From Candidatus Uhrbacteria bacterium (lineage in GTDB: Bacteria; Patescibacteriota; Patescibacteriia; UBA9934; UBA10169), in NCBI GenBank assembly GCA_016187485.1, contig JACPJO010000005.1, positions 155,519 to 219,518 of the forward strand: a stretch of DNA of 64,000 nucleotides. The letters are read 5' to 3'. This document shows, one piece after another, positions 7,667 to 25,263 of the stretch. Under the pieces are notes generated by a model. It was not told the origin of the DNA. It was given only the letters and a program-made list of their open reading frames with translations, and did not search any database. The position numbers were made by a program, and so were the translations under genes. Every line of letters begins with the position of its first letter. Within the stretch, counting starts at the first letter, position 1.

Positions 7667-9326
7667 TTATCGTTTGAGCACGGCAAGGTAAGCCGACGAG
7701 GGAATATCCACACTCCCGCGCCCCATCGCCATCATTTTCTTTTTCCCCTTCTTCTGTTTCTCCAAGAGTTTTCGTTTACGCGTCACGTCCCCGCCGTACA
7801 GATACCTTTTCGACAACGGATTTGCCGATGCGATACGCGTCCTTCTCGAAAACAAGAAACGCCAACGCCTCGACCGGCTCCTCGGCCACCAAAATATCCA
7901 CACGCGCAATCTCGGCCTCGCGATATTCAAGCCAGTCATAGTTGAGTGAGGCATAGCCGGATGTGATGCTTTTGAGCGTGTCGTAAAAGTCAATCACGAT
8001 GGACGCAAGCGGCATCTCGTAGTGAATGAGCGCGCGCGTCGCATCAAGATATTCTGTTGTTTTGTACACCCCACGCTTGTCCGTGCAAAGTGCCATCACT
8101 CCACCGATAAACTCTGCTGGCGTCACCACATCCACGCGCACCCACGGCTCCTCCGTTTTCATGATATGTGATTGGTCGGGCATCTCAAGGGGACCATGCA
8201 CGTCTATCACTTCCCCCTTCATGCTAAAAACACGGTAGCTCACCGATGGCACGGTCATGATGACTTCAAGTTGGCACTCGCGGCGCAAACGTTCCTGCAC
8301 AATCTCCATATGTAACATCCCTAAAAATCCACAGCGGTATCCATGTCCCAGCGCCGGCGAATATTCTGGCTCGTATGCAAGCGCGGCGTCCGACAAGGAA
8401 AGCTTCAGCATGGCTTCACGAAGCTCCTCGTATGTGTGCCCTTCGTGCGGAAAAACGCCCGCATACACCATTGGCTTCACCACTTTGTACCCGGGAAGCG
8501 CCGGTGCCGAACCGTGTTCACGCACTATTGTGTCTCCCACACGACACCCCTCAATACTTTTGAGACCCGTGGCAACGTAGCCGATCTCGCCCGCCGCAAG
8601 GGAAGCATTCGGTGCATACGCAGGTGTGAGCGCTCCCGCCTCCATGACCTCAAACGTGACGCCAGATGCCGACATGCGCAAACGCTCGTGCGGGCGCACA
8701 GCACCATCCACGACACGCACGTACGCCACGACACCTTTGTAGTCGTCATACTTGGAATCAAAGATGAGAGCACGAAGTCCTCCTGCTGTTTGGCTTGCGG
8801 GAGGTGGAATGCGCGCAATGACTTCATCGAGAAGTTTCGCCACGCCTTCCCCGGTTTTCCCCGACACCAGCAAAATATCTTCCTCCCTGCAGCCAAGAAG
8901 TTTCACCAACTCCGCGCGGCGGCGAGGCACGTCCGCAGCGGGCAAGTCAATTTTATTGAGAACGGGAACAATGGTGAGATTTTGTTCCATTGCCAAATAG
9001 AGGTTTGCGATGGTTTGCGCTTGCACGCCTTGCGTTGCATCCACCAAGAGCACCGCGCCTTCAACAGCAGCAAGTGAGCGGGACACCTCATACGTAAAGT
9101 CCACGTGGCCAGGCGTATCAATCAAGTTGAGTTCCACGTCCTTGTAGTGCATGCGCACGGGCGTCAATTTGATGGTAATGCCCTTCTCTCGTTCCAAGTC
9201 CATCGAATCCAAAAGTTGCTCCTTCATTTTACGCTTCTCCACCGTGCCGGTAATCTCAAGCATCCGGTCCGACAGCGTGGACTTGCCGTGGTCAATGTGC
9301 GCAATAATGCAAAAGTTGCGAATCAT
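7667..9326 (-). CDS. lepA: elongation factor 4 (LepA), 3' end frameshifted/internally deleted (possible pseudogene or assembly error)
   Basis: N-terminus [12 protein letters not shown] (GTPase G1) and the rest of LepA lie in frame 7776..9326. The conserved C-terminus [22 protein letters not shown] continues in another frame (7667..7810). About 37 aa between ...GKSVVEK and CYGGD are missing. Confidence 0.75.
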
Positions 9327-10468
9327 GTCGAGATTATACCACCTCCTAAAACGGTGCCGTCTTCTGTGTAAAACACGATGGATTGGCCAGGAGTAATGGC
9401 ACGAATAGGATTCTCGAACTGAACGCTACTGGGGTCAGACCCCGTACGGGGTCTGACCCCGGCCCCGCTCACATGACACGGCTCGAGCGGTTGGCGATAC
9501 CTCACTCTCGCGAAGCACGAGAAGGGGGTCAGACCCCGTACGGGGTCTGACCCCCTCGGCGTAAGCCAATTACATTGCCCCGCGGTAAGTTCTCTCGAGT
9601 ATAACTCTGGATCCACCTCACTCCCGACCACAAGCGTATTCGTTACTGTCTCTTTTCGTACAACATACCACGGCGTGCCACCGCCCACGGAGCCGATGCC
9701 TTCGCGCTGACCAATCGTATAAAACGCCAACCCTTCGTGCTCTCCCACCACACGCCCGTCCGTTGACTTGATGAGTCCAGGCGAGAGCTTGATGCGCTCT
9801 TTCAAAAATTCTTTAATATCCACTTCACCTACGAAGCAAATCCCCATGCTATCTTTTTTTTCTGCAACAGATAGACGGTGCTTGCGCGCAATCTCACGCA
9901 CTTCGGATTTCAATAAGTCACCGACGGGAAACATCACACGCGGCAAAACCTCCTTCGGCATCGCCCACAGAAAATAGGTTTGATCTTTACTCTGATCTCT
10001 CGCAGCCTTCAGAAAAGGGGTCTGGCCCCGTACGGGGTCAGACCCCTTTTCTACTCTCGCATAATGCCCCGTCGCCACAAACGCACACCCGAGTCTGTCC
10101 GCCTCACGCACAAACAAATCAAACTTCACAAATTTGTTGCAGAGCACATCTGGGTTAGGTGTCCGTCCTGCTTCATACTCGTTAAACAGGTTCTCGACAA
10201 CCTTCTCGCGATACTCCTTTTCAAAATCGAGCGTGACAAACTCGATCCCAAGTTGTGCCGCCACGCGCATGGCATCACGTCTCTCGCTGCGCCAATCGCA
10301 TTCGACAAACTCTTGTGTACCGTTGCACGTGCGCGTGCTCCCGCTCCAATTTTTCATGAACGCGCCAATCACTTCGTATCCCTGTTCCAACAACAAAACC
10401 GCGGACACAGATGAGTCAACGCCGCCGGACATGCCAAGCAAAACTCTCTGTTTTGGCATAAGGGCCAC
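9323..10468 (-). CDS. mnmA: tRNA-specific 2-thiouridylase MnmA carrying three in-frame palindromic insertions
   Basis: SGGVDSSVSA PP-loop, FMKNW, GHYAR, C-terminal PGQSIVFY. The ORF starts with GTG at 10468; the first ATG is at 10459. Confidence 0.85.
   Translation of the reverse strand: MALMPKQRVLLGMSGGVDSSVSAVLLLEQGYEVIGAFMKNWSGSTRTCNGTQEFVECDWRSERRDAMRVAAQLGIEFVTLDFEKEYREKVVENLFNEYEAGRTPNPDVLCNKFVKFDLFVREADRLGCAFVATGHYARVEKGSDPVRGQTPFLKAARDQSKDQTYFLWAMPKEVLPRVMFPVGDLLKSEVREIARKHRLSVAEKKDSMGICFVGEVDIKEFLKERIKLSPGLIKSTDGRVVGEHEGLAFYTIGQREGIGSVGGGTPWYVVRKETVTNTLVVGSEVDPELYSRELTAGQCNWLTPRGSDPVRGLTPFSCFARVRYRQPLEPCHVSGAGVRPRTGSDPSSVQFENPIRAITPGQSIVFYTEDGTVLGGGIIST
9431..9460. repeat. 30-bp perfect palindrome GGGGTCAGACCCCGTACGGGGTCTGACCCC, in frame inside mnmA (encodes GVRPRTGSDP)
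   Basis: Read directly; reverse complement is identical. Confidence 0.9.
9525..9554. repeat. second copy of the same 30-bp palindrome inside mnmA (encodes GSDPVRGLTP, different frame)
   Basis: Read directly; flanked by an extra G/C pair. Confidence 0.9.
10017..10046. repeat. third copy (one mismatch) of the 30-bp palindrome inside mnmA (encodes GSDPVRGQTP), extended by AAAA/TTTT arms
   Basis: GGGGTCTGGCCCCGTACGGGGTCAGACCCC read directly. Confidence 0.85.
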
Positions 10469-10529
10469 ATCATACCCCTACAAGCTACCGGCTACAAGAC
10501 ACATCCTTCGCTAAATCTAGCTTAATTCC

Positions 10530-10558
10530 TTGACAAAATCGCCAAAATATGATAAATT
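10530..10558 (+). promoter_or_regulatory. sigma70-like promoter: TTGACA, 17-bp spacer, TAAATT, at the left edge of a GC-rich island
   Basis: Hexamers read directly. The track's ORF at 10530 starts on the TTG of the -35 box, so that start is rejected. Confidence 0.45.
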
Positions 10559-10622
10559 TCCCTGTTTCGTCCTTTCCCGATCCTGGCATGGTGCCGGGAT
10601 CACAACTCGTGGAGGCAGAGGT

Positions 10623-10811
10623 ATGCGGAAGCAGGTTTTTCCCAATGGCGATTGCTTTGTCCTCTCGGACACGGCGATCATGCTGGTCGAGTTGAACGAC
10701 CCCGATCCGCCGGAGCCCCTGTGCTACGGCGACCTGGTCGTGTACTCGATCTGCGGCTTCTTGCTGGGCAGCGGCTTCGCGGCCGTGATCTTCGCCCACC
10801 TGGTCGCCTGA
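10623..10811 (+). CDS. small hypothetical protein with a C-terminal transmembrane helix (GC-rich island)
   Basis: Internal ATG preceded by GGAGGCAGAGGT; GC3-rich codons; hydrophobic C-terminus. Confidence 0.4.
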   Translation: MRKQVFPNGDCFVLSDTAIMLVELNDPDPPEPLCYGDLVVYSICGFLLGSGFAAVIFAHLVA

Positions 10812-10863
10812 GCAACACCACTAACCCGGCCGCGTTGGCCGGACATGCGGAGGAATGCGAGAG

Positions 10864-11844
10864 ATGTTGAACGCCAACTTCCCCAACCCCGACATCGGTG
10901 ACGACAACACGATCGAGCGCCGCTCGATCCTCGGGGACACCCGGTTCGGGCTCCGGGCGCGGAACAACGCCGAGCGCGTGCGCCACAACCGGCGCCGGCA
11001 GCGGAGCCGCGGGTGCTACGTCCCGAAGTTCACGCACGGCAAGCGCGACGTGAAAGACTGCCTGGTCGAGGCGCAGAACTTCGCGCCGATCCAGGCCTAC
11101 GACAGCACCGACAACGGCGAGGACGTGGTCATCACCGCGATCAGCAACGGGATCGAGGACATGGACGAGGGCGAGGCCGTGCTCATGGCGTGGGCCAACG
11201 CGTTCGAGGAGGACCTCGACGCCCAGCTCGCCTACTACGACGAGCTGGAGGCCGAGTTCGCCGAGCCCGAGGAGCCCGACTACCGGGCCGAAGGTGCCCT
11301 CTACGAAAACGACCGGTACGAGGAGCTCGAGCTTGCGGAGCCGCCGCGCATCCCGCCCCACCAGAGCTACCCGCCCAAGCGCCACGTGGTGGACCGCCTC
11401 TGGGTCCTCCTCGGGTTCAAGAACCTGGAGGACGCAGAGTTCATGGTGCGCCGTGCCGAGTGGCAGTGCGTGGATGCGAAGAGCCCGGAGGAGCTCGAGC
11501 TGAAGCGCCTGGCGCTTCAGGTGGCCGAGACCACCCGTGACGAGCGGCGGGAGTCCCTCCTCCACCGCTTCGGTCGCACGATCATGGCCCCGATCCGACG
11601 CGAGCACACGCCGTGCCGCCAGAGCCCCTGGAAGGACCGCAAGGCCCCCCGCCAGTGGGCCAGGCACCAGCCGCGGCACCGCTCCACCATCCCGCCCATC
11701 GAGGTGATCAACACCCGCGCGGCGTGGATCGAGGAGCAGGAGGCAGTCGTGGAGATCATCATCCGCGCCATGTTCGTGGACGAGCCGGATGTGCTCCCCC
11801 GGGGCACGCCGATCGAACTCGCCCTCGAACTCGCCGCCGCCTAG
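10864..11844 (+). CDS. hypothetical acidic/Arg-rich protein (GC-rich island)
   Basis: GGAGG 10 nt upstream of the ATG; strong GC3 bias; followed by conserved hairpin GGGGACccaatcGTCCCC. Confidence 0.5.
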   Translation: MLNANFPNPDIGDDNTIERRSILGDTRFGLRARNNAERVRHNRRRQRSRGCYVPKFTHGKRDVKDCLVEAQNFAPIQAYDSTDNGEDVVITAISNGIEDMDEGEAVLMAWANAFEEDLDAQLAYYDELEAEFAEPEEPDYRAEGALYENDRYEELELAEPPRIPPHQSYPPKRHVVDRLWVLLGFKNLEDAEFMVRRAEWQCVDAKSPEELELKRLALQVAETTRDERRESLLHRFGRTIMAPIRREHTPCRQSPWKDRKAPRQWARHQPRHRSTIPPIEVINTRAAWIEEQEAVVEIIIRAMFVDEPDVLPRGTPIELALELAAA

Positions 11845-11866
11845 CGCCGCCGTCCCTTTCAGTTCC

Positions 11867-11899
11867 TTTCTCTCGGGGACCCAATCGTCCCCATTCCCC
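11867..11899. repeat. 34-bp direct repeat TTTCTCTCGGGGACCCAATCGTCCCCATTCCCCC (copy 1), contains a 6-bp-stem hairpin
   Basis: Identical sequence at 12800-12832, each just downstream of a GC-rich gene. Confidence 0.8.
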
Positions 11900-12009
11900 C
11901 CGTCCGGATGATAAAATACATTCGTCCTGACAGGTGGAGTAGTAGGTCCTTCACTTAACACGCGTAACGGCTGGCATCCATAAGCCCAGCCAGGCGCACT
12001 GGATAGATC

Positions 12010-12237
12010 ATGAACGACTGGACTGCCGTGACACTCAGTTTCTTGGCCCTCATCGTCATGTGCCTCGTCGACTACAGCCACGGGCAGGTCTACGGAATCG
12101 AGAACGGTTGCTGCCCCTACCGGCCCGCCCCCGCCTTCGAGTGGGGGTGCACGTCGGTCGAAAAGGACATCTGCACCGACGAAGATCCGCGTGACTACGT
12201 CTACGGCGACGTGATGAGCGACTCTTCCAGCCGCTGA
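12010..12237 (+). CDS. small secreted cysteine-rich protein (signal peptide, 6 Cys)
   Basis: N-terminal hydrophobic segment AVTLSFLALIVMCLV followed by CCPY...GC...C. GC-rich. Confidence 0.45.
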   Translation: MNDWTAVTLSFLALIVMCLVDYSHGQVYGIENGCCPYRPAPAFEWGCTSVEKDICTDEDPRDYVYGDVMSDSSSR

Positions 12238-12299
12238 AGAAGCCCCAACCCCACTTGCGCATCCGAGCCCTACGCAGGCCAGGCGCATGGAGACGTTCG

Positions 12300-12776
12300 A
12301 TGTCCGATCCTAAGATCCCCGCCATCCTCCCCAACTACAAGGAAATGGAGACCACAGCGGCACGGTCCGTCGTGATCGACATCCTCCTCTTCTGCGGCTT
12401 CCTCCTGGCCCAGAACATCACCGCAGCGCTCTTCACGGGGCTCGTCATCGCCGGCAAGCCGGTCTGGAGCATCGTCACCGTCGGCGTGTTATGGGTGGTG
12501 ACCGGTGGCTGCATGGTGCGTGTGGCCAGGAGCCTCCGCGACAGTCACGCGAACTTGGTACTCGTCCGCGACCACAAGCGCGCCATCCACGCCGTGCTTG
12601 CTCATCCCAATGTAGCCAAAGAAGCATGGTTCTTCTTCAACTACTGCCAGAGGATGCACCCAGACAACATGTGGCACGCCCTTCTCATGTTCCACGCTCA
12701 CCTGACGAAGACGACGGCCACGCCGGTCAACGGCCACGTGGGTGATGGCTTCGACGACCCGATCGAGGACGACTAG
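12300..12776 (+). CDS. hypothetical membrane protein (3 predicted TM helices)
   Basis: GGAGA RBS 6 nt upstream of the ATG; hydrophobic helices; GC-rich. Confidence 0.5.
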   Translation: MSDPKIPAILPNYKEMETTAARSVVIDILLFCGFLLAQNITAALFTGLVIAGKPVWSIVTVGVLWVVTGGCMVRVARSLRDSHANLVLVRDHKRAIHAVLAHPNVAKEAWFFFNYCQRMHPDNMWHALLMFHAHLTKTTATPVNGHVGDGFDDPIEDD

Positions 12777-12799
12777 CCATTACCCGCCAGTACTGCTCT

Positions 12800-12832
12800 T
12801 TTCTCTCGGGGACCCAATCGTCCCCATTCCCC
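12800..12832. repeat. 34-bp direct repeat (copy 2) with GGGGACccaatcGTCCCC hairpin
   Basis: Identical to 11867-11899. Confidence 0.8.
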
Positions 12833-12934
12833 CTTTTCTAGCAATATTATAGATATGATGCCTCGTTATCTGTCCGACCGGACACTTAACACAGCCGACT
12901 ATTGCTTGCAGAGGGGGAATCCTGCCAATCGGTA

Positions 12935-12977
12935 AACTACCAAAAATCAGGAGCTTAGCTCCTGATTTTTGGTAGTT
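12935..12977. repeat. 39-43-bp perfect palindrome ACTACCAAAAATCAGGAGCTtAGCTCCTGATTTTTGGTAGT
   Basis: Read directly. The core AGGAGCT(A/T)AGCTCCT recurs at 41883-41897. Confidence 0.8.
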
Positions 12978-13025
12978 GCAGATTTTTGCGTTCCCGCGTA
13001 GGGTGTTCAGACACCGGGAGGACAC

Positions 13026-13292
13026 ATGCGGCCAGAACGCATCGCGTGCATCGTCTCCTCGATCTTTGGCATCGGCATCCATATAGGAGCCTTTTGGTGG
13101 TCAGTAACCATCGAGCCGCTCCCGCAGGAGATTCTCAACGTCTACCCCCTCCTCGCGTCCATGATCGGCTTCTGCCAGCTCTTTCTCATCGTCGCCGCCC
13201 TCAACGATAAGCCCAGCCCAAGAAATCGCAAAAGCTGGACGAACCGGCGATTATGGAAGCCGCGCCGCAGCAACCTGCGCGCCATCCGCTGA
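13026..13292 (+). CDS. small membrane protein (2 TM helices), last gene of the GC-rich island
   Basis: GGGAGG RBS 4 nt upstream of the ATG. Followed by the conserved 3' module (hairpin 13307-13321 plus ATTTCTGCTTT). Confidence 0.45.
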   Translation: MRPERIACIVSSIFGIGIHIGAFWWSVTIEPLPQEILNVYPLLASMIGFCQLFLIVAALNDKPSPRNRKSWTNRRLWKPRRSNLRAIR

Positions 13293-13360
13293 CTCCTTCC
13301 TTCTCTCCCGCCCCGTGCGGGATTTCTGCTTTCTGCAGCTAGCGCGGTACCAGGTACCGC

Positions 13361-14662
13361 CTAGACGGCTTGCTGGAATTTTTCTCTGTCCTCCCGCAAG
13401 ACATAAAAATCTGTAAAGCGGATTTTTTCGTTATATTTTTTCAGAAGATCAGAGTATTCCGCAATCGGCACATTCTCATATCCATGAATCATCTTCCGCG
13501 CCACAAATAGACCACTCTTCTCCCCTGACACATCCACTTTGGAAAGTGCGTTACGCGATTCCACGACAAAAAACCTTATTGCCTCTCGCTTGCATAACTG
13601 CATAAGCCCACCCAAGAGCAGGCGGTCTTTCTCGCGCTCCTCGTGGAACCGCATTACATGCTTGGCGGGAACGCGGCGCATCAAATGCTTGGACCAATAC
13701 TTCTCGGCCACAGCCGCCTCCTCCATCATTTCGACAACCTTACCATCACGCAGAGACGCGTAGGTATAAGGATCGGAAGGGATCACCAAGTCAATTTCAC
13801 GCTCGCGAAATACTTGCGTAAGGTAGTGCGTGAACCCCACGGCAGTCTTATGAAAATATACTTGGTCAATCATGTGGTAGCGTGCCAGCAGCATGTCCTC
13901 GAACGCGCGCACGCCATTTTCGGAAAGCTGCAAAACCATTTGCCCGTCCTCGATGGCAAACCCAAGCGAGCTGATGAGCCAATCAAGATCGTACATGCCG
14001 TACGCGACTCCGCAATAGTAAGAATCACGCAGAAGGTAGTCCATGCGGTCGCAATCTACCTCGCCCGAAATGAGCGCCTTGCACGCGCGCTGAAGCCGTG
14101 GAACCTCGTGCTCTAGATCTTCAAACCACGTAGACGGAACCACCTCTTCGTGGATGAGCGACGCAACATCTTGCGCCATCGTCTGTGGCAGCACGCCATC
14201 TTCGGCCAGCGTCTGCACAAGCAATACGGAGTAATCTTCGTGCCGCGCTTGGCGCATTGGTCTCTCCCCATTTACCCACCAACTGTTATTAAGTGGGAGC
14301 GATGTAAGTTTCGGAAAGACAGATTCGCTGGCATGAGAAAATGGCCCGTGTCCCACGTCATGCAGAAGCCCCGCAAGCCGCATGACTTGGGCGAGCTCGT
14401 CCCACACTTCCGCACCAAGCGCCACACGCGTGCCCTCAAGTGACGTGCGCATCCTTCCCGCCAGTCGCCCAGCCACATGCATGGCGCCAAGCACATGGGA
14501 AAAACGGTCGTGTGTAGCACCCGGATACACATACGCTTGCAGAAAAGAAAGTTGACTGATGAAGCGCAGCCGTTGAACAAACGGATGGTCAATGACCTTG
14601 TGCTCCAGGGCATTGAAGGGGATGCGTTTGTGGATGGGGTCGCGAATTTCAAACTCAGCCAT
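13361..14662 (-). CDS. dGTPase-like HD-domain triphosphohydrolase
   Basis: HDRFSHVLGAMHVAG and LHDVGHGPFSHASE motifs (metal-binding HD signature of the dGTP triphosphohydrolase family). Confidence 0.8.
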   Translation of the reverse strand: MAEFEIRDPIHKRIPFNALEHKVIDHPFVQRLRFISQLSFLQAYVYPGATHDRFSHVLGAMHVAGRLAGRMRTSLEGTRVALGAEVWDELAQVMRLAGLLHDVGHGPFSHASESVFPKLTSLPLNNSWWVNGERPMRQARHEDYSVLLVQTLAEDGVLPQTMAQDVASLIHEEVVPSTWFEDLEHEVPRLQRACKALISGEVDCDRMDYLLRDSYYCGVAYGMYDLDWLISSLGFAIEDGQMVLQLSENGVRAFEDMLLARYHMIDQVYFHKTAVGFTHYLTQVFREREIDLVIPSDPYTYASLRDGKVVEMMEEAAVAEKYWSKHLMRRVPAKHVMRFHEEREKDRLLLGGLMQLCKREAIRFFVVESRNALSKVDVSGEKSGLFVARKMIHGYENVPIAEYSDLLKKYNEKIRFTDFYVLREDREKFQQAV

Positions 14663-15514: not shown

Positions 15515-17254
15515 TTAGCCGCGCGAGGTTCCTGATTCAATAAACTTATAGTAACACTCTTTGCAGTATACCGCCCGTTTTGGATACACCTTATTCTTCC
15601 CAACGGAAATGCTCTTTTGGCACTCCGCGCACAATGCCGGCTCCACGATCGCCATGTTGAGCTCGGCGTAGAGGTCCATGAGACGCCGCGTGGCATGCGA
15701 CCTGGGCGGCGCAATCTTGAGCGCGCGGTAAATCGCAAGCTCGGGCACGAGGTATGAAAACCGCCGGTCGGAGACATCATCGCGATACACCGTCTTCGTC
15801 ATGGCGTCGTCTGCGCGATCAGGAATCTCGCTCGTTGCATGGATCATGCTCGCATCCATAGCGGCACCCTCCGCTCCCTCGCTTGTCACATCAACATCAG
15901 GCATACCGAGTTTGATCAGCTCCTCCTTCGGCGTGTCATAGATGTAGCGTGCGCCGCATCCGCTCCAGTGCTGGGTCGAAAACTTCGCCGATGGTAAGTC
16001 ACCATACTCTCCCCTCTCAAGCATCGCGCACTTGAGTGCATCCACGGTCTTCCAATATTCCTCCTCCGTGTATTGCTTGTTCAAGATGCAAAACTTTTTG
16101 TGCTTGAGCCCAATGCATCCGAAACAGTTTTCGCAATCCATGCACGCATGACAATATTCGCACTCAAGACAGCGCGTGAGAAGCGAGAGCGAGTAGCGAG
16201 TCTTCGAGCTGTACCCATTCCCGATACCATAGTAGCAATCCGACGCACCATTTACCGCCGCACACATGTAGCAATCGCTCGACGGCACACCATAGGCGAT
16301 ATTGACCCATCCAAGATCGGCACACCCTTTGCAGACATAAAATGCATCGCGGATGCGCGTTGAATCGTAAATGTATTCCCCCGTCACGTCTTCTGCATGC
16401 ACGTTCCAGTTTTCCGGCCAGGCGGCGTGCGCAATAAGATCTTTGAAGCGCTGCTCGTATTCCGCGCGTACCGCATACGAAGAAAGGTCAACCTCTGAAC
16501 GTCGTTTCTTCCACTCCGCTTCAGTAAGCTGTTCATTCCACCAAAGATATTTCGCATTGCGTTTATTCGTCGCACCGAAGCAAAACTCGCAGTTTCGACA
16601 ATCGAAGAGAAACGCACCTGAGAGACAATCGAGGCATTCGCGCAGATACAAACAGTCCGCGATGTTTTGAGAATGGACGACATTGTAGGAGCGCGAGATG
16701 TGGGTGGAGAGCGCGACCTCGGCAGAGTCTTCCATGTCCGATACGTTCATCGAAAAAACAGAATTCTTTGATTTGCACGCCAAGACGAAGTAGCTGTTCT
16801 GATCCCCACGCGAGATGAACGCGAGAGAATTTTCCGGCTGGACGTAATTAAAGTTCGCCGAACGTGGTACGGCAAGAGACAGCTTGTAGAGTTGATCGAC
16901 AAACGAGCGAGAGAGATCAAGCTCGCGTCCGTGCGACGTGAAGTCTTGCTTGAACCACTCGTCATCCGGGATCACACGGATGCCACTTGCGGGGTGAACG
17001 ACGGAGATAAGCGGTTTGCCGCCATTCGGTTGTGCGTTGTACCACATGTCAAACATGACGATGTGGGCATTCATGAGCTTCATCCGCGTCATGGGCGCAT
17101 ATTTCGACGGCGGGACGTTGTATTTGCGATACTGCGCAATCTCCGTGTCGTCCATCATCCACTTCGTCCCAAGCACAGCACACGTCCGCTCCCCGGGTTT
17201 GGTAGCATCGAGGATGGCTTTGACTTTTGCATCGTAGTTGGAGGTTTTGCTCAT
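15515..17254 (-). CDS. cysteine-rich paralog family protein P6 (about 27 Cys, no signal peptide, C-terminal CxxC...CxxC zinc-ribbon-like motif)
   Basis: N-terminus MSKTSNYDAKVKAILDATKPGERTCA, FLFDCRNCEFCFGATNKR, CENCFGCIGLKHKKFCILNKQY. Shares these blocks with five neighbours. Confidence 0.7.
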   Translation of the reverse strand: MSKTSNYDAKVKAILDATKPGERTCAVLGTKWMMDDTEIAQYRKYNVPPSKYAPMTRMKLMNAHIVMFDMWYNAQPNGGKPLISVVHPASGIRVIPDDEWFKQDFTSHGRELDLSRSFVDQLYKLSLAVPRSANFNYVQPENSLAFISRGDQNSYFVLACKSKNSVFSMNVSDMEDSAEVALSTHISRSYNVVHSQNIADCLYLRECLDCLSGAFLFDCRNCEFCFGATNKRNAKYLWWNEQLTEAEWKKRRSEVDLSSYAVRAEYEQRFKDLIAHAAWPENWNVHAEDVTGEYIYDSTRIRDAFYVCKGCADLGWVNIAYGVPSSDCYMCAAVNGASDCYYGIGNGYSSKTRYSLSLLTRCLECEYCHACMDCENCFGCIGLKHKKFCILNKQYTEEEYWKTVDALKCAMLERGEYGDLPSAKFSTQHWSGCGARYIYDTPKEELIKLGMPDVDVTSEGAEGAAMDASMIHATSEIPDRADDAMTKTVYRDDVSDRRFSYLVPELAIYRALKIAPPRSHATRRLMDLYAELNMAIVEPALCAECQKSISVGKNKVYPKRAVYCKECYYKFIESGTSRG

Positions 17255-17269
17255 ACAAACTATTCGCTT

Positions 17270-17281
17270 ATTCGCACGAAT
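17270..17281. promoter_or_regulatory. ATTCGCACGAAT (imperfect copy of the ATTCGCGCGAAT motif), 15 bp upstream of the P6 start
   Basis: Part of the conserved TATTCGCTTATTCGC(A/G)CGAATTAG block. Confidence 0.45.
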
Positions 17282-17290
17282 TAGCCGCGC

Positions 17291-19033
17291 TTACCCGTTC
17301 TTTTCAATAAACCCATGATAACAATTCATGCAGTATACTCTCCGCTCGGGAAACGTGAAATTTTTATACGTGGTCGTTTTGGCGCTGCAGGAGGCACAGA
17401 CAACTTCGATCGCAAAGGGGGAGTTCGCGTGGCGGAGCCAGTGTGTGAGGCGCGTAATAAAATGCCGCCGTGGGAATGGCCAGCGCTTTTCTTTGTAGAT
17501 CGCAAGCTCTTTTGGCACGATGCTGAAATCGCGATCGAGCTCCTCATCATGGATCGGCGTGTTCACATGCTCGGACGAGACCTCATCAATGCAATCCGGG
17601 ATATCCTCGATGCGAAGCCGTACCACATGCGCCTCCTCCCGTTTCGGCGCAAGCACCAATCCTTGCTTTGGATCCACACGAATCGCGCCGAACCTCTCGA
17701 GGTCTCGCTCGCGGTAATCAAAGTACACGGCACCCGTCGAGTGTTCAAAACCCGAGAGCGAAAACTTTCCGGGAAAAAACTCGCCATAACTTCCGTCATC
17801 GAGCATCGCGCACTTGAGCTCATCTACACGTCTCCAGTATTCCTCTTTTGGATACGGCTTGTTGAAGATGTGAAACTCCTTTTTGTGAAGTCCAGCACAC
17901 CCGAAGCAACGCTGGCAATCATCGCAGACGGCACAATACTCAAGTTCTACTCCATTGCTGCATCCCATCGTAAACTTGTTATCAGCGCCGTTCGTGTCCC
18001 CCGTGCTCATGTAGGTCCGTGTCGCCCAGCCAAATCCACTACAATACGCGCAATCGTTCGCCTCAATGCCGAATCGGCAGTGGTAACAGCCCGTGCACTT
18101 GTCGAGCCAATAACTATATCCATCGCAATTAACACAAAAGTTCAGGTGCTCACCGCGACTGTTTTCGTTTCGGATCCCGAAGGAGGCTGGCCAGATACTC
18201 TGTTCGTGCCAGAGTCTGTAGAACTTCTCGAGCCACGCATCTGCGGTCGATCGACAGCCGAGATCTACTTCCGCGCGCCGCTTTTTCCATTCTGATTCCG
18301 AGAGTTGTTCGTTGAACCACAGATATTTTTTCTGCCGTTTGTTCGTAGCCCCGAAGCACAGCTCGCAATCGCGGCAATCAAAAAGGAAGGAACTTTTGAG
18401 ACACCGATAACAGCTGAAGAGATATTCCGAATCGGCAATATTATGCGAATCGCTTATGGAAAACGAGCGGGCAATGTGTGTTCCATTGACCACGTCCACA
18501 CAGTCCTCCGCCTGAAATGCTGCGTAGGTGTAGAGAGAGCGAAGAGCCTGCGAGGCGCACGACATATAACTCTCCACGCTTTTCCACGAACCGACCGCGA
18601 CCGACGCAGCATCCACATCACGATTGCGTTTGGCACGCATGGGAACCATCGTCACGAGATCCCAGATTTGATCGAACACCGGACGGGAGGGATCAATGTC
18701 TTGATACGTGGAGGAAAAATCATGTTTGTACCAATCAATGTCCTCAACGACTTTGAACGGAAGATCGGGATGAATGGCAGAGACGATCGGCTTGCTCGAG
18801 AACACATCACGGTTCCAAAAAATGGCCAACCCGGTGTTGTAGCCATTCAGCATATTCATGCGCGTACCAGGTTTCACTTTCGACGGCGGGACACGAAACT
18901 TTTTACAGATAGCGATTTCGCTTTCATCCAACACCCACGTCTCGCCCGTCAATGCGCAAACCCGCTCCTCCCCTGCCTTCAAGCCGGCGAGGATTGCATC
19001 GAGCTTGGTGTCAAAGTTGGGTGTGTTGGACAT
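17291..19033 (-). CDS. cysteine-rich paralog family protein P5
   Basis: Start trimmed to MSNTPNFDTKLDAILAG by alignment to the paralogs. It abuts the P4 stop with a gap of about 1 bp. CDDCQRCFGCAGL motif. Confidence 0.65.
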   Translation of the reverse strand: MSNTPNFDTKLDAILAGLKAGEERVCALTGETWVLDESEIAICKKFRVPPSKVKPGTRMNMLNGYNTGLAIFWNRDVFSSKPIVSAIHPDLPFKVVEDIDWYKHDFSSTYQDIDPSRPVFDQIWDLVTMVPMRAKRNRDVDAASVAVGSWKSVESYMSCASQALRSLYTYAAFQAEDCVDVVNGTHIARSFSISDSHNIADSEYLFSCYRCLKSSFLFDCRDCELCFGATNKRQKKYLWFNEQLSESEWKKRRAEVDLGCRSTADAWLEKFYRLWHEQSIWPASFGIRNENSRGEHLNFCVNCDGYSYWLDKCTGCYHCRFGIEANDCAYCSGFGWATRTYMSTGDTNGADNKFTMGCSNGVELEYCAVCDDCQRCFGCAGLHKKEFHIFNKPYPKEEYWRRVDELKCAMLDDGSYGEFFPGKFSLSGFEHSTGAVYFDYRERDLERFGAIRVDPKQGLVLAPKREEAHVVRLRIEDIPDCIDEVSSEHVNTPIHDEELDRDFSIVPKELAIYKEKRWPFPRRHFITRLTHWLRHANSPFAIEVVCASCSAKTTTYKNFTFPERRVYCMNCYHGFIEKNG

Positions 19034-19034
19034 A

Positions 19035-20750
19035 TTATCCTCTCTCCCCAAGATACTCCCAATAGCACTTTTGACATAGAATGCGACGCATAGGAAATGT
19101 CGAGTTTCGGTACGTCGTAACTTCCGCGTGGCACTTCTCACACATCGCCTGCTCTTCACGCGGGCCGTTCGAGAACCGAAAACGGTTTTTCATGGAGAGG
19201 AATGGGTGCTCACTCGGCACGGCAACATTTTGCTTGCGGCAAAATGCCAGCTCGGCTTGTGTTACAACAAACGGACGGTGGAGAATGGGATCGAGAACAG
19301 ATTTGTTGATGAAGTTTTCCCATGCGGGATCATCGGCACGATCCGGAAGGTCGTCCGGTGAGAGAAGATCGGGCGTCGTCGATCCTATTGATGTTTCATA
19401 CATGGGGGCGCCGTGAGCACGAAGCTCGTCCGGTAAGTATTCCGCATACAAGTCACCCATCGAGAACTGGAAACCTGGCTCGGAAAATGCAGCAGGGAAA
19501 AATTCGCCGTACTCTCCACGATCAAGCATTGCACATTTCAGTTCATCGAGCTTCTGCCAATAATTCGCCTCGTCATATTGCTGATTCAGAATGCAAAACT
19601 TCTTGTGCCGTAAACCAACGCAGCCGAAACAATGCTCGCAATCATAACAGTTGAGAGAGTACTCCATGCCGATCGAACGCCACGTGCGGAAACAGAAACG
19701 GTTTTGGCTTCCCGAGAGCATGTCGCAACACTCATACATCTGTCCGCCCTTGCCACCCCAACCGGTAAACGCCGACTCTTGAAGTTCGAGCGTCGCATAG
19801 CAACGAAAGCAATCCGTTGAGTCGTAGTTGCGATAAGCAAACTTACAACGTGTTGAGTCGGAAATATGCTCCCCCGTGCACCCCTCCGAGCCAACATGGA
19901 CATACGCCGGCCAGACCGACTGACGGATCATCTCGAGAAACTGTTCATGCTGTTTTTGATACACGGCGCGCGATGAGAGATCAACTTCTTGTCGCCGCTT
20001 TTCCCATTCCTCTTTGGAAAGTTGCTCGTTCCACCACAAATACTTTTTATGCAACTGATTGCTCGCACCAAAACAGAATTCGCAATCAACGCAATCATAG
20101 AGGAATGCACTTGATGAACAGCCGTTGCAAGAAAAACAATCAACACAGCTAAAGCACTTGCTCGAATAGCTCGTCTGAAAACAAAATCGGCATCGACTGT
20201 TGTCGATCACGTCCATGCAATCTTCGTTCTCAAGACCGAGGAACGCATGAAGCACACGCCGGTTATACATAAGCGCGAAGGCCAAGTAGGCATCCTCACA
20301 CTTGATAAGGTCGACGCCGGTACAGCGAAGGTTCGAACCATCATCGCGGAGCGCCCCGACAGGAATACGGTGAGCCAGAGGAAGAAGCTGGTCGAAAAAT
20401 GATCGTTGAGAATCAAGTAACTGCCCCGGTTCTAGAAACTCTTTCGAGAACCATTCTTTATCGTGAATGATGTTAAACGGCGAGTCAGGGTGCACAAAAC
20501 TCCAGATTGACTCTCCCGTCTCGGCATGTGGTTTTTTCCAAAGCGCTAATCCCGACACAAACCCCATTAAGTGCCGCATTCTCGTATACGGCGCCCGCTT
20601 ACTCGGCGGGACGTTGAATTTTCTGTACCAGCCAATCTCTTCATCCGTCATGTTCCACTTTTCTCCCGTCAACGCACAAACTCTCTCGCCCGGCTGCGTG
20701 ACGTCGAGAATGGATTTTACTCTCAGGTCAAAATATTGAGTCTTGGACAT
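19035..20750 (-). CDS. cysteine-rich paralog family protein P4
   Basis: MSKTQYFDLRVKSILDVTQPGERVCALTGEKWNMTDEEIGWYRKFNVPPS, CEHCFGCVGLRHKKFCILNQQY. Confidence 0.7.
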   Translation of the reverse strand: MSKTQYFDLRVKSILDVTQPGERVCALTGEKWNMTDEEIGWYRKFNVPPSKRAPYTRMRHLMGFVSGLALWKKPHAETGESIWSFVHPDSPFNIIHDKEWFSKEFLEPGQLLDSQRSFFDQLLPLAHRIPVGALRDDGSNLRCTGVDLIKCEDAYLAFALMYNRRVLHAFLGLENEDCMDVIDNSRCRFCFQTSYSSKCFSCVDCFSCNGCSSSAFLYDCVDCEFCFGASNQLHKKYLWWNEQLSKEEWEKRRQEVDLSSRAVYQKQHEQFLEMIRQSVWPAYVHVGSEGCTGEHISDSTRCKFAYRNYDSTDCFRCYATLELQESAFTGWGGKGGQMYECCDMLSGSQNRFCFRTWRSIGMEYSLNCYDCEHCFGCVGLRHKKFCILNQQYDEANYWQKLDELKCAMLDRGEYGEFFPAAFSEPGFQFSMGDLYAEYLPDELRAHGAPMYETSIGSTTPDLLSPDDLPDRADDPAWENFINKSVLDPILHRPFVVTQAELAFCRKQNVAVPSEHPFLSMKNRFRFSNGPREEQAMCEKCHAEVTTYRNSTFPMRRILCQKCYWEYLGERG

Positions 20751-20761
20751 ACTATTCGCTT

Positions 20762-20773
20762 ATTCGCGCGAAT
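20762..20773. promoter_or_regulatory. ATTCGCGCGAAT perfect 12-bp palindrome, 11 bp upstream of the P4 start
   Basis: Read directly. Confidence 0.5.
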
Positions 20774-20785
20774 TAGAGATCATTG

Positions 20786-22516
20786 CTAGCCACGTTCTTC
20801 CATGTACCGAAGATAGCATGGTCTGCATAACACGCGCCGACGGCTGGAAAAAAGTGCGTTTCGGCTTGTCGTAACTGAGGTGCAGCAGATAGCGCATGTC
20901 GTTTCTTCAGGGATAGGCACATTCGAGTGGCGTACAAGGTGGAGAAGGCGAGTGAGAAAGTGCTTGTCGGGAATTGGTAATCGGTGTTTTTGATAAAAGG
21001 CAAGTTCCGCTGGTGTGATCGTGTATAAACGATTAAGTGACTCATCCAGAATTGGTTTCCCAACATGTTGGGAAACATCAATATCCAGAAGTCGGTCAGG
21101 TAGTTCAGATGCTTTGAGCAGCCCTTCGGACTCATTGATATTCCCTTTCGTAGGATCGAACGTCGGCGCGCCGAATTTCTTGAGTTCATCGTCACTATAC
21201 CCAAAGTAAAACTCCCCCATCGAAAACTGAAATCCTGTCTGCGAAAGACTCGCAGGAAAAAACATGCCGTACTCGCCACGGTCGAGCATCGCACACTTGA
21301 TCTCGTCCACCCGCTGCCAATATTCCTCTTCGCCGTACGGCTTGTTGAAAATGTGAAACTTCTTTTTTTTGAGACCGACGCAGCCAAAACAGTGCTCGCA
21401 GTCGTAGCAGTCCATGCAATATTCTAAGTCTTGGCACCGCCATGAGCGTGAGCAGAATTTGAGGTTGTGATAATACGCGATATCCGCCGAGCAGTACGCC
21501 GCGTCTCCCCACCCCAACCACACGACACTCATGCTGTCACGATCATCCAGACTCATCCAGCATTGAAAGAGGTCCGTGCTCCCTTCGACCCAGTAACTCT
21601 CGCGACATCTTGTGGCGCGCACCAAATACTCTCCCGTGCTCTCCACGTCTGTCGCAAAGTTGAAATGGTCGCGGAAATACCCTTCCCCACGAATCATCTC
21701 AAGGTATCTTTCCGAGCACTCGTTCCATGTACGCCGTGATCGGAGGTCGACCATCTCAAGACGTTTACGATACTCTCCCTCCGACAGCTGTTCGTTCCAG
21801 AATATAAATTGTTTATCCTTCTTATTCGTTGCACCGAAGCAGTCTTGGCAGCGGCTACAATCAAAGAGAAACGCGCTGTTGATACAATCACCGCATTGGA
21901 AACAATAGGTACAGTGATGCATGTTCTCGGCCGCGTTGATGTGATAGCTCTCATTTACCCGAAGGGTGTTCGTGATACAGGCCGAATCACTTCCATGAAA
22001 ACTCACCGACGCATACAAAACACGTTGTAAATCCGCTCCGCCAAACAAAAGATAGGTGTCTTGGCATTTGATCATGTCCACGCCAACGCTGTTGGTACTT
22101 GACCCCTCATCGCGCAGAGCACCCACAGGAATCGAATATGCAAGTTGTTGAAACTGAGCAAAGAATGGTTCTCCAGGATCGAGCTCTCTTGTTGTTTGTG
22201 CGAATTCACGGTTATGCCAGTCGCGGTCGGGAATCACTTGATATGGACTGTCTGGGTGCACAAACGTAAGAAGCGGCTCCTTAGTCTCCGCATGCGGCTT
22301 TTTCCAAATGGCTATCCCAACAGGAAAGCCCAGGAGCTGTTTCAATCGCGGAATCGGCGCGCAGGAATGCGGCGGCACGTTGAACTTTTTGTACCATCCA
22401 ATCTCCTCCTCGGTCATGTTCCACTTCTCCCCCGTCAACGCACAAACCCTCTCGCCAGGTTTTATCGCGTCGAGGATGGATTTTACTTTGGCATCGTAGT
22501 TAGGTGTCCGATTCAT
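20786..22516 (-). CDS. cysteine-rich paralog family protein P3
   Basis: MNRTPNYDAKVKSILDAIKPGERVCALTGEKWNMTEEEIGWYKKFNVPP, CEHCFGCVGLKKKKFHIFNKPY. Confidence 0.7.
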   Translation of the reverse strand: MNRTPNYDAKVKSILDAIKPGERVCALTGEKWNMTEEEIGWYKKFNVPPHSCAPIPRLKQLLGFPVGIAIWKKPHAETKEPLLTFVHPDSPYQVIPDRDWHNREFAQTTRELDPGEPFFAQFQQLAYSIPVGALRDEGSSTNSVGVDMIKCQDTYLLFGGADLQRVLYASVSFHGSDSACITNTLRVNESYHINAAENMHHCTYCFQCGDCINSAFLFDCSRCQDCFGATNKKDKQFIFWNEQLSEGEYRKRLEMVDLRSRRTWNECSERYLEMIRGEGYFRDHFNFATDVESTGEYLVRATRCRESYWVEGSTDLFQCWMSLDDRDSMSVVWLGWGDAAYCSADIAYYHNLKFCSRSWRCQDLEYCMDCYDCEHCFGCVGLKKKKFHIFNKPYGEEEYWQRVDEIKCAMLDRGEYGMFFPASLSQTGFQFSMGEFYFGYSDDELKKFGAPTFDPTKGNINESEGLLKASELPDRLLDIDVSQHVGKPILDESLNRLYTITPAELAFYQKHRLPIPDKHFLTRLLHLVRHSNVPIPEETTCAICCTSVTTSRNALFSSRRRVLCRPCYLRYMEERG

Positions 22517-22524
22517 ATTCGCCT

Positions 22525-22536
22525 ATTCGCGCGAAT
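22525..22536. promoter_or_regulatory. ATTCGCGCGAAT palindrome, 8 bp upstream of the P3 start
   Basis: Read directly. Confidence 0.5.
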
Positions 22537-22796
22537 TAGAGAAGAGAAATAATCTGCTTTGCGCCGGACGGCTGGTCTTTGGAAAGACGATAGAACATCT
22601 CCAGGCTCCGCTGATCACGATCAACGATATCAGCTGCAAAAAGAATCCCCAAATGCTTCGAGGTTGCTTTAAGTGATAGCTTGATCTTATTGGCAATCTC
22701 CCACACCGGTGCTTCCTCTTTTTCTCTTAGGAACTCAACGATCGCAAGCCGCCTGCGGTTCGCCAACGCCTTCAATGTACGCTCTAATTGCCTCAT
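22536..22796 (-). CDS. small ArsR/SmtB-type winged-helix transcriptional regulator (second regulator of the array)
   Basis: 86 aa. NRRRLAIVEFLRE...VWEIANKIKLSLKATSKHLGILFAADIV has the HTH_20-like layout. Preceded by an extended palindrome centred on ATTCGCGCGAAT. Confidence 0.55.
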   Translation of the reverse strand: MRQLERTLKALANRRRLAIVEFLREKEEAPVWEIANKIKLSLKATSKHLGILFAADIVDRDQRSLEMFYRLSKDQPSGAKQIISLL

Positions 22797-22802
22797 ACAA
22801 AA

Positions 22803-22834
22803 CTATTCTATCATTCGCGCGAATTAGAGAATAG
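22803..22834. promoter_or_regulatory. extended palindrome CTATTCTATCATTCGCGCGAATTAGAGAATAG upstream of the small ArsR-like gene
   Basis: Core ATTCGCGCGAAT at 22813-22824 with imperfect outer arms. Confidence 0.5.
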
Positions 22835-22849
22835 ATTTATCCACTATGT

Positions 22850-23485: not shown

Positions 23486-23493
23486 GTTCGCCT

Positions 23494-23505: not shown

Positions 23506-23517
23506 TAGAGATTGCCC

Positions 23518-25251: not shown

Positions 25252-25263
25252 AAACTATTCTCT

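Follow-up and report, generated by a model that had tools for sequence, protein, structure and literature searches.

In lambdoid and other phages, stretches of "more DNA" called morons form autonomous transcription units (PMC3594210). In T4-type phages, promoter-early stem-loops (PeSLs) are mobile regulatory cassettes of hyperplastic genome regions (Arbiol et al. 2010, PMC2839356), and an orphan gene with two flanking PeSLs in one genome can correspond to a single PeSL in a relative, excision as a mini-circle being possible (PMC2839356). We describe here a bacterial locus that resembles both. It lies in a 64-kb stretch of DNA, hereafter the window, from a metagenome-assembled genome (MAG) of Candidatus Uhrbacteria, an uncultivated groundwater bacterium of the Candidate Phyla Radiation (CPR); the contig is 303 kb long and carries HYW18_ locus tags. 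The interval between mnmA and an HD-domain dGTPase-like gene spans 2,892 bp and contains an island (10520-13335) of five + strand open reading frames (ORFs), all covered by the NCBI annotation as HYW18_03600 to HYW18_03620, each as a hypothetical protein. We read this region as a hyperplastic accessory-gene slot in which resident regulatory frames hold exchangeable, G+C-rich orphan payloads, and we put the probability of this reading at about 0.5.

Atypical base composition is routinely taken as a sign of recent horizontal transfer. Acquired and orphan bacterial genes are usually A+T-richer than the genome that holds them, and the locus shows the opposite sign, being G+C-rich. Our search of the literature on Uhrbacteria, horizontal transfer and GC content found nothing relevant.

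Layout and composition of the island

The features of the island and its two flanking genes are listed below (TM, transmembrane; RBS, ribosome-binding site; GC1, GC2 and GC3, G+C content at the first, second and third codon positions).

9323-10468, - strand: mnmA, the left flank, with transcription directed away from the slot
10530-10558, + strand: promoter P1, TTGACA, 17-nt spacer and TG-extended -10 TAAATT, from a consensus scan
10623-10811, + strand: ORF1 (HYW18_03600), 62 aa, acidic, C-terminal TM segment; GC1/2/3 0.60/0.38/0.89; GGAGG RBS
10864-11844, + strand: ORF2 (HYW18_03605), 326 aa, acidic, Arg-rich, no TM segment; GC1/2/3 0.70/0.42/0.95; GGAGG RBS
11864-11900, + strand: repeat R1, made up of a C/T-rich leader, the hairpin GGGGAC-ccaatc-GTCCCC (11875-11892) and ATTCCCCC, with no T-run behind it
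11909-11917, + strand: P2, putative promoter of ORF3-ORF4, extended -10 TGATAAAAT, then TTCGTCCT as in P1; read from the sequence
12010-12237, + strand: ORF3 (HYW18_03610), 75 aa, acidic, N-terminal hydrophobic segment, 5 Cys; GC3 0.86; no RBS
12300-12776, + strand: ORF4 (HYW18_03615), 158 aa, two or more TM-like segments within residues 18-76, soluble C-terminal half; GGAG RBS
12797-12833, + strand: repeat R2, a further copy of R that matches R1 at 36/37 positions, loop included; hairpin 12808-12825
12826-12920, + strand: structured non-coding element, 21-nt inverted arms (86% complementary) around 53 nt; fold z -4.1
12935-12977, no strand: 43-nt perfect palindrome, arms 21+21 with a 1-nt center, 100% complementary
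13026-13292, + strand: ORF5 (HYW18_03620), 88 aa, with two TM segments and a C-terminal tail that is strongly basic (pI 11.4); GGAGG RBS
13306-13332, + strand: ORF5 terminator, C/T-rich leader, hairpin TCCCGC-cccgt-GCGGGA, tail TTTCTGCTTT; z -2.45
13361-14662, - strand: HD-domain dGTPase-like gene (Pfam HD), the right flank, convergent with ORF5, with uppP/mnmA synteny in relatives

The G+C content is about 0.49-0.53 in the flanks, reaches 0.65-0.73 over 10700-11900 and lies at 0.59-0.66 over the remaining ORFs. GC3 is 0.89, 0.95, 0.86, 0.85 and 0.79 for ORF1 to ORF5, respectively, compared to a median of 0.58 (robust standard deviation 0.034) for window ORFs of at least 150 aa. Codon choice is shifted relative to core genes for Ile (ATC 0.95 versus 0.39), Phe (TTC 0.83 versus 0.32), Leu (CTC 0.61 versus 0.24) and Gln (CAG 1.00 versus 0.48). 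The bias is not purely a codon effect, since the two intercistronic spacers within the payload have a G+C content of 0.66, compared to 0.48 in 14 core spacers (p = 7e-5). By contrast, the G+C content is 0.47-0.56 in the promoter and terminator frames, and the limit of the G+C-rich DNA coincides with the limit between payload and frame. A - strand ORF at 10678-12288 (536 aa, GC1 0.86) was rejected as an antisense shadow of the GC3-rich + strand genes.

Most of these features had been pointed out in an earlier note made from the sequence alone, and its descriptive part held up well. The sharp rise of GC and GC3 over the flanking genes is there, as is the codon-usage divergence from core genes for which the note had proposed a check. 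TTGACA-N17-TAAATT was found at the start of the island with TG upstream of the -10, and the identical 34-bp hairpin repeat said to end two genes was located at 11867-11900 and 12800-12833. The palindrome, given as 39-43 bp, measures 43 nt. Hydropathy and composition agreed with the proposed product types (a small TM protein, an acidic Arg-rich 326-aa protein, a small Cys-rich protein and two membrane proteins), and GGAGG-type RBSs are present on several genes: GGAGG at ORF1, ORF2 and ORF5, GGAG at ORF4 and none at ORF3.

A variable slot that a close relative fills with an ORF2 homologue

A scan of species-representative genomes with mnmA detected Uhrbacteria loci at 52-61% identity, in genomes of 33-66% G+C. 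The synteny uppP-dGTPase-mnmA is kept across these Uhrbacteria, with a dGTPase-mnmA gap of 15 bp to 4 kb. In ten relatives the gap is 15-590 bp, so the island stands between genes that are adjacent or nearly so in many Uhrbacteria; the earlier note had suggested such a synteny comparison. Gaps of 250-600 bp usually contain one small opposite-strand gene, which is REC-like or encodes a membrane protein depending on the lineage; in two genomes (L018 and L020) the GC3 of this slot gene is above that of its own genome. Across Uhrbacteria, the slot is thus found empty or with a REC-like gene, a membrane protein, the ORF2 family or a 4-kb insert, and conserved synteny together with changing gap content identifies the site as an old, variable slot. 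The 4-kb insert is at L027 6025-10000 (Uhrbacteria RIFCSPHIGHO2_01_FULL_63_20, 66% GC) and has ORFs of 496 and 690 aa on the strand of the flanking genes.

A full HMMER search of ORF2 against 1.84 billion cluster representatives returned one credible relative, P0003 (228 aa), which aligns in two colinear blocks, EEDLDxQLAYYDELxAEFA and QWARHQP. Two metagenome contigs of the Joint Genome Institute (JGI), L093 and L094, encode P0003 in the same slot of a relative (JGI metagenomes 3300055478 and 3300056725) whose mnmA (on L093) is 75% identical to that of the window in protein and 77% in DNA, and whose dGTPase 3' end (L094 926-970) is 93% identical. The slot of the relative is about 975 bp long and reads mnmA start, P1, ORF2 homologue, hairpin, about 60 nt, dGTPase stop; ORF1, ORF3, ORF4 and ORF5 have no counterpart in it. 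Another weak phmmer match of ORF2, P0002, is a repetitive acidic surface protein and was judged to be a compositional match.

The signals around the ORF2 homologue could be aligned directly. The P1 orthologue, at L093 1167-1195, shares 79% identity over 57 nt (window, TTGACAAAATCGCCAAAATATGATAAATT; relative, TTGACAAAGTAGCAAAATTGTGGTAAATT). All six substitutions fall in the spacer, while the -35, the TG and the -10 are unchanged and the downstream box TTTCGTCCTTT is identical; by simple arithmetic, the probability that six changes all miss the 14 constrained positions is ~0.01. The R regions are 82% identical over 82 nt (window, GTTCCTTTCTCTCGGGGACccaatcGTCCCCATTCCCCCCGTCCGGATGAT; relative, GTTCCTTTCTCCGGGGACccttctGTCCCCATTCCCCTCGTCCGGATGAT), with an identical stem, conserved flanks and 4 of the 6 loop bases changed. 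Judged by these alignments, the frames are as conserved as the flanking core genes and appear to have been inherited vertically. Beyond the hairpin, the sequence of the relative, CGTCCGGATGAT..TCGTCC, resembles the sequence after R1 and not that after R2, which marks ORF2-R1-ORF3 as the true chromosomal junction; at the position of P2 the relative reads GGATGAT-GTGA-TCGTCC and has no -10. Since R2 is identical to R1 including the loop, the duplication is younger than the split of the two lineages.

We also considered an assembly chimera, in which foreign G+C-rich DNA would have been fused to the Uhrbacteria contig at the repeat or the palindrome. Every short-read contig does break at R and the palindrome, but a k=31 graph must break there, and the breaks in the Logan assemblies are confined to these two elements. 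Logan assemblies from several independent runs match three island segments at 99.96-100% identity: mnmA-ORF1-ORF2 up to the repeat, the 933-bp ORF3-ORF4 unit, and palindrome-ORF5-dGTPase-uppP. The second was obtained as contig L092 (963 nt, 933 + 30, spanning 11867-12829). All seven contigs that come from the dGTPase side stop at 12945, and ORF5 is joined to the dGTPase gene in these 7 independent contigs, just as mnmA is contiguous with ORF1-ORF2. The relative, moreover, independently has the order mnmA, P1, ORF2 homologue, R, dGTPase, and its sequence after R agrees with the R1-to-ORF3 junction. The island is very unlikely to be an assembly artefact, and a chimera is scarcely credible.

Three minor observations concern the relative and the assemblies. 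In the ORF2 family the start codon has shifted its position (window 10864-10935 versus L093 1226-1300, as read from the sequence): the 13-nt CCCCAACCCCGAC is coding in window ORF2 (residues 7-11), lies upstream of the ATG called in the relative and falls in a different frame if the upstream GTG of the relative is used. A hairpin, ACAACACTCGGTGTTG(T), follows the dGTPase stop of the relative (L094 870-895) and occurs in the window at 60539-60564 and 60858-60883, on either side of a gene of low GC (0.42), 60037-60714; it could be a second shared terminator or a family resembling repetitive extragenic palindromic (REP) elements. The MAG and the compared Logan contigs differ at just two positions, C/G at 14522 and A/G at 49159, so the population is nearly clonal over the sampled runs. 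A lone contig mismatch considered as a marker of the palindrome center was dropped, as it is the single-nucleotide polymorphism in the dGTPase gene at 14522.

Persistence of the G+C bias

The orthologous pair allowed us to ask whether the bias is fading. GC1/2/3 is 0.70/0.41/0.94 for P0003, which lies beside an mnmA of GC3 0.64, and 0.70/0.42/0.95 for ORF2, beside an mnmA of GC3 0.58. At identical residues of the mnmA pair, 48% of the codons differ, compared to 63% expected at saturation (76% of the way); at identical residues of ORF2 and P0003, 29-33% differ, compared to 36% expected (81-92% of the way), and 17 of 20 third-position differences are C<->G exchanges. Silent sites are thus near saturation and yet remain G or C, which argues that the bias is at equilibrium and is not an un-ameliorated relic of one recent transfer. 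A crude decay model that starts from 0.95 and tends toward an equilibrium of 0.60 gives an expected GC3 of ~0.76-0.79 per lineage, compared to the observed 0.95 and 0.94. The bias appears to have persisted across a speciation event while the frames were inherited vertically.

These results bear on the earlier note's view of the island as horizontally acquired cargo from a high-GC donor. The composition is indeed foreign, and four of the ORFs are absent from the relative. The claim fails for ORF2, whose family occupies the same slot there with matching composition. Homologues in Actinobacteria or other high-GC taxa, where the note would have looked for the donor, were not found: ORF2 matches itself and P0003, and ORF4 matches itself. 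A scenario in which the 2.8-kb block arrived whole in one recent insertion from Actinobacteria or another high-GC donor, and has not yet ameliorated, would explain the strong compositional contrast, the short or empty slot of many relatives and the orphan status of all five genes. For ORF2, however, it is contradicted by the presence of the family, with the same promoter and hairpin, in the slot of the relative; the silent sites have turned over while GC3 has remained unchanged, where a passive model would have let it fall; and the block is modular, with three units separated by mid-GC frames of native type. Island codon usage correlates with that of core genes from Uhrbacteria of 61-66% GC (r = 0.91-0.94), and the shared preference for CTC over CTG is not typical of Actinobacteria. 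We consider a single insertion unlikely.

As the main alternative, the genes could be native, fast-evolving and lineage specific, their silent G+C kept high in place by selection on the transcript or by GC-biased gene conversion at a frequently recombining locus, with no external donor. Much of the evidence fits this account: positional orthologues both have a GC3 of ~0.95 in spite of near-saturated silent sites, old paralogues elsewhere in the window (29% identical, see below) both have a GC3 of ~0.9, and the frames are inherited vertically. GC2 (0.42) and amino acid composition have the signature of a mid-GC proteome, with 9.3% Ala and 4.9% Gly, compared to 12.9% Ala and 8.0% Gly in a 66% GC Uhrbacteria genome, and the elevated GC3 of the slot gene in L018 and L020 points the same way. 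On the other hand, the bias extends to the payload spacers and stops sharply at frames and flanks, unlike flank-anchored conversion tracts. Translational selection does not usually favor G-ending Lys, Glu and Gln codons, which the island prefers, and we know of no mechanism that would raise the GC3 of single genes in a bacterium from 0.58 to 0.95. We therefore regard maintenance in place as possible but lean against it.

In the reading that we prefer, the most likely source of the payloads is a G+C-rich gene pool whose codon dialect resembles that of Uhrbacteria and from which they are repeatedly re-sampled. We favor re-sampling since the payload spacers share the bias, which ends where the frames begin; repeated re-sampling would also leave the bias undecayed.

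Promoters, hairpins and terminators

The promoter and terminator roles discussed here are inferred from motif and structure. P1 is the sole 10/12 match of the consensus scan in the 9-15 kb region, and across the 64 kb a relaxed sigma-70 pattern matches P1 and just two further sites; the box TTTCGTCCTTT follows P1 at 10565-10575. The putative P2 -10, TGATAAAAT, starts 17 nt past the R1 hairpin, upstream of ORF3, and was not called in the consensus scan owing to a poor -35. Downstream of R2, the same scan gave no convincing promoter.

The two copies of the repeat, at 11867-11900 and 12800-12833, agree exactly over 34 nt and at 97% over 37 nt, with a chance expectation of 0; R1 and R2 bracket a 933-bp unit made up of ORF3 and ORF4. 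Within the structured element that follows R2, CACTTAACAC occurs at 12883-12892 and is found again ~50 nt past R1 (11952-11961). A search of Rfam, at the gathering threshold and at E <= 1, gave no match.

The palindrome has an AAAAAT-CAGGAGCT-t-AGCTCCTG-ATTTTT core, a folding energy of -34.9 kcal/mol (z -8.5) and a single occurrence in the window. It looks like a bidirectional intrinsic terminator or, alternatively, an operator overlapping a weak ORF5 promoter. Together with its T-run, it passed a terminator scan, as did the 13306-13332 hairpin with its T-rich tail; the conserved hairpin of R1 and R2 lacks a T-run. The earlier note had described the end of the last gene as a module common to other GC-rich cassettes. 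This stands for the design and fails for the exact sequence: the 26-nt terminator string CCCGCcccgtGCGGGATTTCTGCTTT is single in the window even at 3 mismatches, whereas the arrangement of C/T-rich leader, G+C hairpin and TTTCTGCTTT-type tail recurs at 13306, 36191, 44127, 45105 and 53498, at all five sites on the + strand and behind GC3-rich genes. The 10-mer TTTCTGCTKT has 3 occurrences, compared to 0.37 expected.

A model for the slot

In our model, the backbone would be the conserved uppP-dGTPase-mnmA-lepA order of the Uhrbacteria chromosome, with two layers set into it. The first would consist of the resident frames, P1 (a strong sigma-70-type promoter divergent from mnmA) and R, with ordinary G+C content and vertical inheritance; the second would consist of the payloads, orphan genes with their intercistronic spacers, whose silent sites are saturated for G/C and especially for C. 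The ancestral state, retained in the relative, would be P1, one ORF2-family gene and R. This genome would have gained ORF1 between P1 and ORF2, the ORF3-ORF4 module with a second, identical R, and ORF5 with its own terminator. The order R-module-R here, compared to a single R in the relative, suggests that modules come and go by recombination at R, with entry and exit taking place at the repeated hairpin and promoter-like cassette. The empty site would then be the ORF2 end and R, followed by TTTTCTAGC.

As to expression, P1 would transcribe ORF1-ORF2. Because it has no T-run, R is probably an attenuator or 3' stabilizer rather than a full terminator. P2, with an extended -10 that may have arisen by a small insertion with respect to the relative, would add transcription of ORF3-ORF4. 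The palindrome, composed of an A-tract, a stem and a T-tract, could halt read-through in both directions, and ORF5 would form a separate unit that ends at 13306-13332 and shields the convergent dGTPase gene. On this scheme, transcripts would begin ~7 nt past 10558 and 11917 and have 3' ends at 11892, 12825, ~12985 and ~13332.

Several points weigh against this model. It draws on a single close relative, on contigs of 2 kb and 1 kb, and on an amelioration estimate inferred with a crude model. The agreement with the promoter consensus is weak for both P2 and the ORF5 promoter. Pattern and profile searches found R twice in the 64 kb and nowhere in ~1.3 Mb of other Patescibacteria loci, and with R absent from distant loci, a dispersed cassette system is not supported. 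No recombination intermediate or empty site was observed. A G+C-rich reservoir was not found in the phage, plasmid, viral and metagenome collections: tblastn of ORF2 against the phage and plasmid collections and scans of viral contigs for ORF2, ORF4 and R returned nothing, and scans of metagenome contigs with the A1 alignment, and then with P0003, gave no confirmed locus.

The repeats also raise the question of a site-specific mobile element, integron-like or a small integrative module, that would use the 34-37-nt R as its attachment site and depend on an integrase encoded elsewhere. Exact 34-nt direct repeats do bracket a two-gene unit where the relative has one copy of the repeat, and the 963-nt contig is what a 933-bp circle would give at k=31, and it is also compatible with the chromosomal arrangement. 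However, none of the four slot-flanking genes (lepA, mnmA, the HD-domain gene and BacA/uppP) encodes an integrase, the other window genes not having been systematically scanned. R, as read from the sequence, has no GTTRRRY-type core and is not dispersed in the window, the units have their own promoters, and a search of the 64-kb window for tRNA genes found none. Such an element is, in our judgment, quite improbable.

The five proteins

One of the products would be acidic and cytoplasmic, the other four small and either located in the membrane or secreted. ORF2 has a pI of 5.1, 62 Asp and Glu residues and 11% Arg, and is predicted to be mostly helical; its AlphaFold model, built on a 2-sequence alignment, has a mean confidence (predicted local distance difference test, pLDDT) of 44 and is unusable for a fold search. 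In ORF3, four of the 5 Cys fall within ~50 residues after the hydrophobic segment, as in a putative small secreted or membrane-anchored peptide. Searches of Pfam, PHROGs, PADLOC and NCBIfam with all five proteins gave nothing above threshold, and a profile search of the PDB gave nothing. In a word-seeded search of 5.8 billion proteins ORF2 found itself alone, and ORF4 likewise found itself alone among 5.8 billion proteins. ORF1, ORF3 and ORF5 are singletons in 90% clusters, these three having been examined in 90% clusters and hidden Markov model (HMM) libraries only.

A prophage remnant, or a lysis or bacteriocin-type cassette with ORF4 or ORF5 as a holin-like protein and ORF3 as a small secreted peptide, would be in keeping with small TM proteins, a Cys-rich exported peptide and moron-like units. 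ORF4 does match Pfam Holin-X (E 0.0011), but at 19.5 bits the score is below the cut-off of 28.4 and the match involves TM helices only. PHROG matches are weak (E 0.013 and 0.42), PADLOC has none, no phage, viral-contig or plasmid relative was found in the collections named above, and the flanks are housekeeping genes. This origin seems very improbable to us. An episymbiotic lifestyle is generally attributed to CPR bacteria, and from this lifestyle and the protein topology one might guess that the products have envelope or host-contact roles.

Other G+C-rich cassettes and palindromic elements in the window

Further GC3-rich genes occur in the window.

35418-36218, + strand: GGDEF cassette, TTGACAAA promoter, GGDEF protein at 35490-36167 (GC3 0.79), C/T leader-hairpin-TTTCTGCTTT terminator
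43181-45125, + strand: thrombospondin type 3 (TSP3)-like cassettes, TTGACAAAAT promoter, two TM-anchored paralogues, the terminator design after each
52711-53524, + strand: small-orphan cassette, TTGACAAA promoter between two REP-like palindromes, small TM-anchored orphan near 52.9-53.5 kb, hairpin and TTTCTGCTGT
60962-62446, - strand: GC3-rich gene for a 494-aa exported orphan

The cassettes are intergenic, adjoin core genes (secDF, murC, glyA) and share TTGACA-type promoters and the same terminator design. The codon usage of the island correlates with that of the GGDEF gene and the two TSP3-like paralogues at r = 0.97. The paralogues, at 43294-44043 and 44379-45086, are 29% identical and have a GC3 of 0.92 and 0.90. 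These orphans, candidates for a surface or adhesion role, lie between murC and glyA and have an N-terminal TM segment, conserved Cys and calcium-binding motifs of the thrombospondin type 3-like form D-x-D-G-x-x-D-x-x-D-x-C-P. The idea that the TTGACAAA promoter is special to GC-rich cassettes was dropped, as the same type, TTGACAAAA..GCC..T-rich..TGCTAnnnT (sequence TTGACAAAAACGCCTTTTTTTGCTAGGGT), precedes a - strand gene of ordinary composition at 37527, which argues that the regulatory signals are native in type.

Other palindromic elements were noted. The motif TCTCTCTAAGTGATCACTAAGAGAGA has six intergenic copies, at 44162, 46443, 46567, 47219, 52674 and 52762; one lies between the TSP3-like cassettes and two bracket the promoter at 52711. 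Several flank a 217-aa gene of low GC (0.44) at 46597-47250 with a weak match to the Y1 transposase family (PF01797), and the motif and this gene look like a pair of the type formed by REP elements and their associated tyrosine transposases (REP/RAYT). The coding sequence of mnmA holds three in-frame insertions (9431-9460, 9525-9554 and 10017-10046) of a perfect palindrome of 30 nt, GGGGTCAGACCCCGTACGGGGTCTGACCCC, which is translated as GSDPVRGQTPF- and GVRPRTGSDP-type peptides; mnmA of the relative (L093) has no such inserts. Rickettsia palindromic elements, which insert in frame in genes, come to mind here. The region 15515-27027 is a tandem array of ~580-aa paralogous genes that have no Pfam match and 3-5 copies in the relatives L018 and L024; its spacers carry a conserved palindrome, ATTCGCGCGAAT-TAGAGA.

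Significance and comparison with known systems

It is conceivable, although we hold it doubtful, that the hyperplastic regions of phages have a native counterpart on some CPR (Uhrbacteria) chromosomes. Promoter/hairpin frames passed on vertically, each at a set intergenic position, would act as landing pads for exchangeable orphan modules; the silent sites and internal spacers of these modules would be kept actively close to G+C saturation (GC3 0.8-0.95, compared to a genome of 54% GC), whether through a directional process or through constant re-sampling from a dedicated G+C-rich pool; and the small membrane and secreted products would form a fast-diversifying host-contact repertoire. Were this general, genes of this kind would be misdated wherever horizontal transfer is detected from composition, and CPR genomes would hold modular, phage-like swapping of small envelope and secreted proteins, which bears on the adaptation of episymbionts to their hosts. 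The locus yields testable sequence-level predictions on promoter and terminator grammar in a lineage without genetics.

Some known systems differ in kind. Integron arrays also have small co-oriented genes with repeated hairpin elements between them and modules bounded by direct repeats. They differ in having an integrase and attI, neither of which is among the four genes flanking the slot, and attC sites, whose GTT-containing core (GTTRRRY / RYYYAAC) is absent from the 37-nt R on either strand; attC sites are variable where the two R copies are identical, and integron cassettes are promoterless where the units here carry P1 and P2. Unlike a classical genomic island, the locus has no tRNA gene in the window and no flanking integrase, and the direct repeats bound the internal 933-bp unit only. 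R, with its two copies in 64 kb, also differs from REP palindromes and bacterial interspersed mosaic elements (BIMEs), a description that fits the different palindrome family and the Y1-transposase-like gene at 44-53 kb.

The likeness to flexible islets, or replacement hot spots, of bacterial pangenomes lies in conserved flanking core genes and lineage-variable content; unlike these, the payload here is far G+C-richer than the genome, and the regulatory frame is conserved while the payload changes. With PeSLs, the locus shares a stem-loop and a sigma-70-type promoter beside an orphan gene (the R1 hairpin, then P2, upstream of ORF3) and an orphan module between two copies of the element where a relative has one (R1-[ORF3-ORF4]-R2 versus the single R of L094). 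The size of the module is compatible with a mini-circle, L092 fitting either a circle or a chromosomal arrangement, and the double part played by a PeSL, as attenuator or terminator and as recombination substrate, is one that we only propose for R. PeSLs, however, number ~50 per phage genome and share ~100 bp of similarity, compared to a 34-37-nt exact repeat in two copies here; the host here is a CPR bacterium, and PeSL-flanked orphans have not been reported to be GC3-saturated.

Like a phage moron, the island is placed between genes that are adjacent in relatives, has its own promoter (TTGACA-N17-TG-TAAATT, with the hexamers and TG invariant in the orthologue at the sequence level), departs in composition from its neighbors (GC3 0.79-0.95 versus 0.58 +/- 0.034) and carries accessory cargo, which in morons often encodes a membrane or secreted protein. 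The moron's own hairpin terminator has a mixed parallel, with a T-rich tail or T-run at 13306-13332 and the palindrome and none at R1 and R2. By this comparison, each unit would share up to four of the five moron features (PMC3594210), the terminator being the mixed one and residence in a phage genome the one that is absent. Unlike a moron, the units reside on a bacterial chromosome backbone, flanked by lepA, mnmA, dGTPase and uppP and with no phage genes or homologues; three of them are stacked, and the extreme compositional offset is stably kept in the orthologue. The locus is of a known kind, a variable islet with moron- and PeSL-like modularity; what is new is its CPR setting, the G+C-rich sign of its bias and the persistence of that bias.

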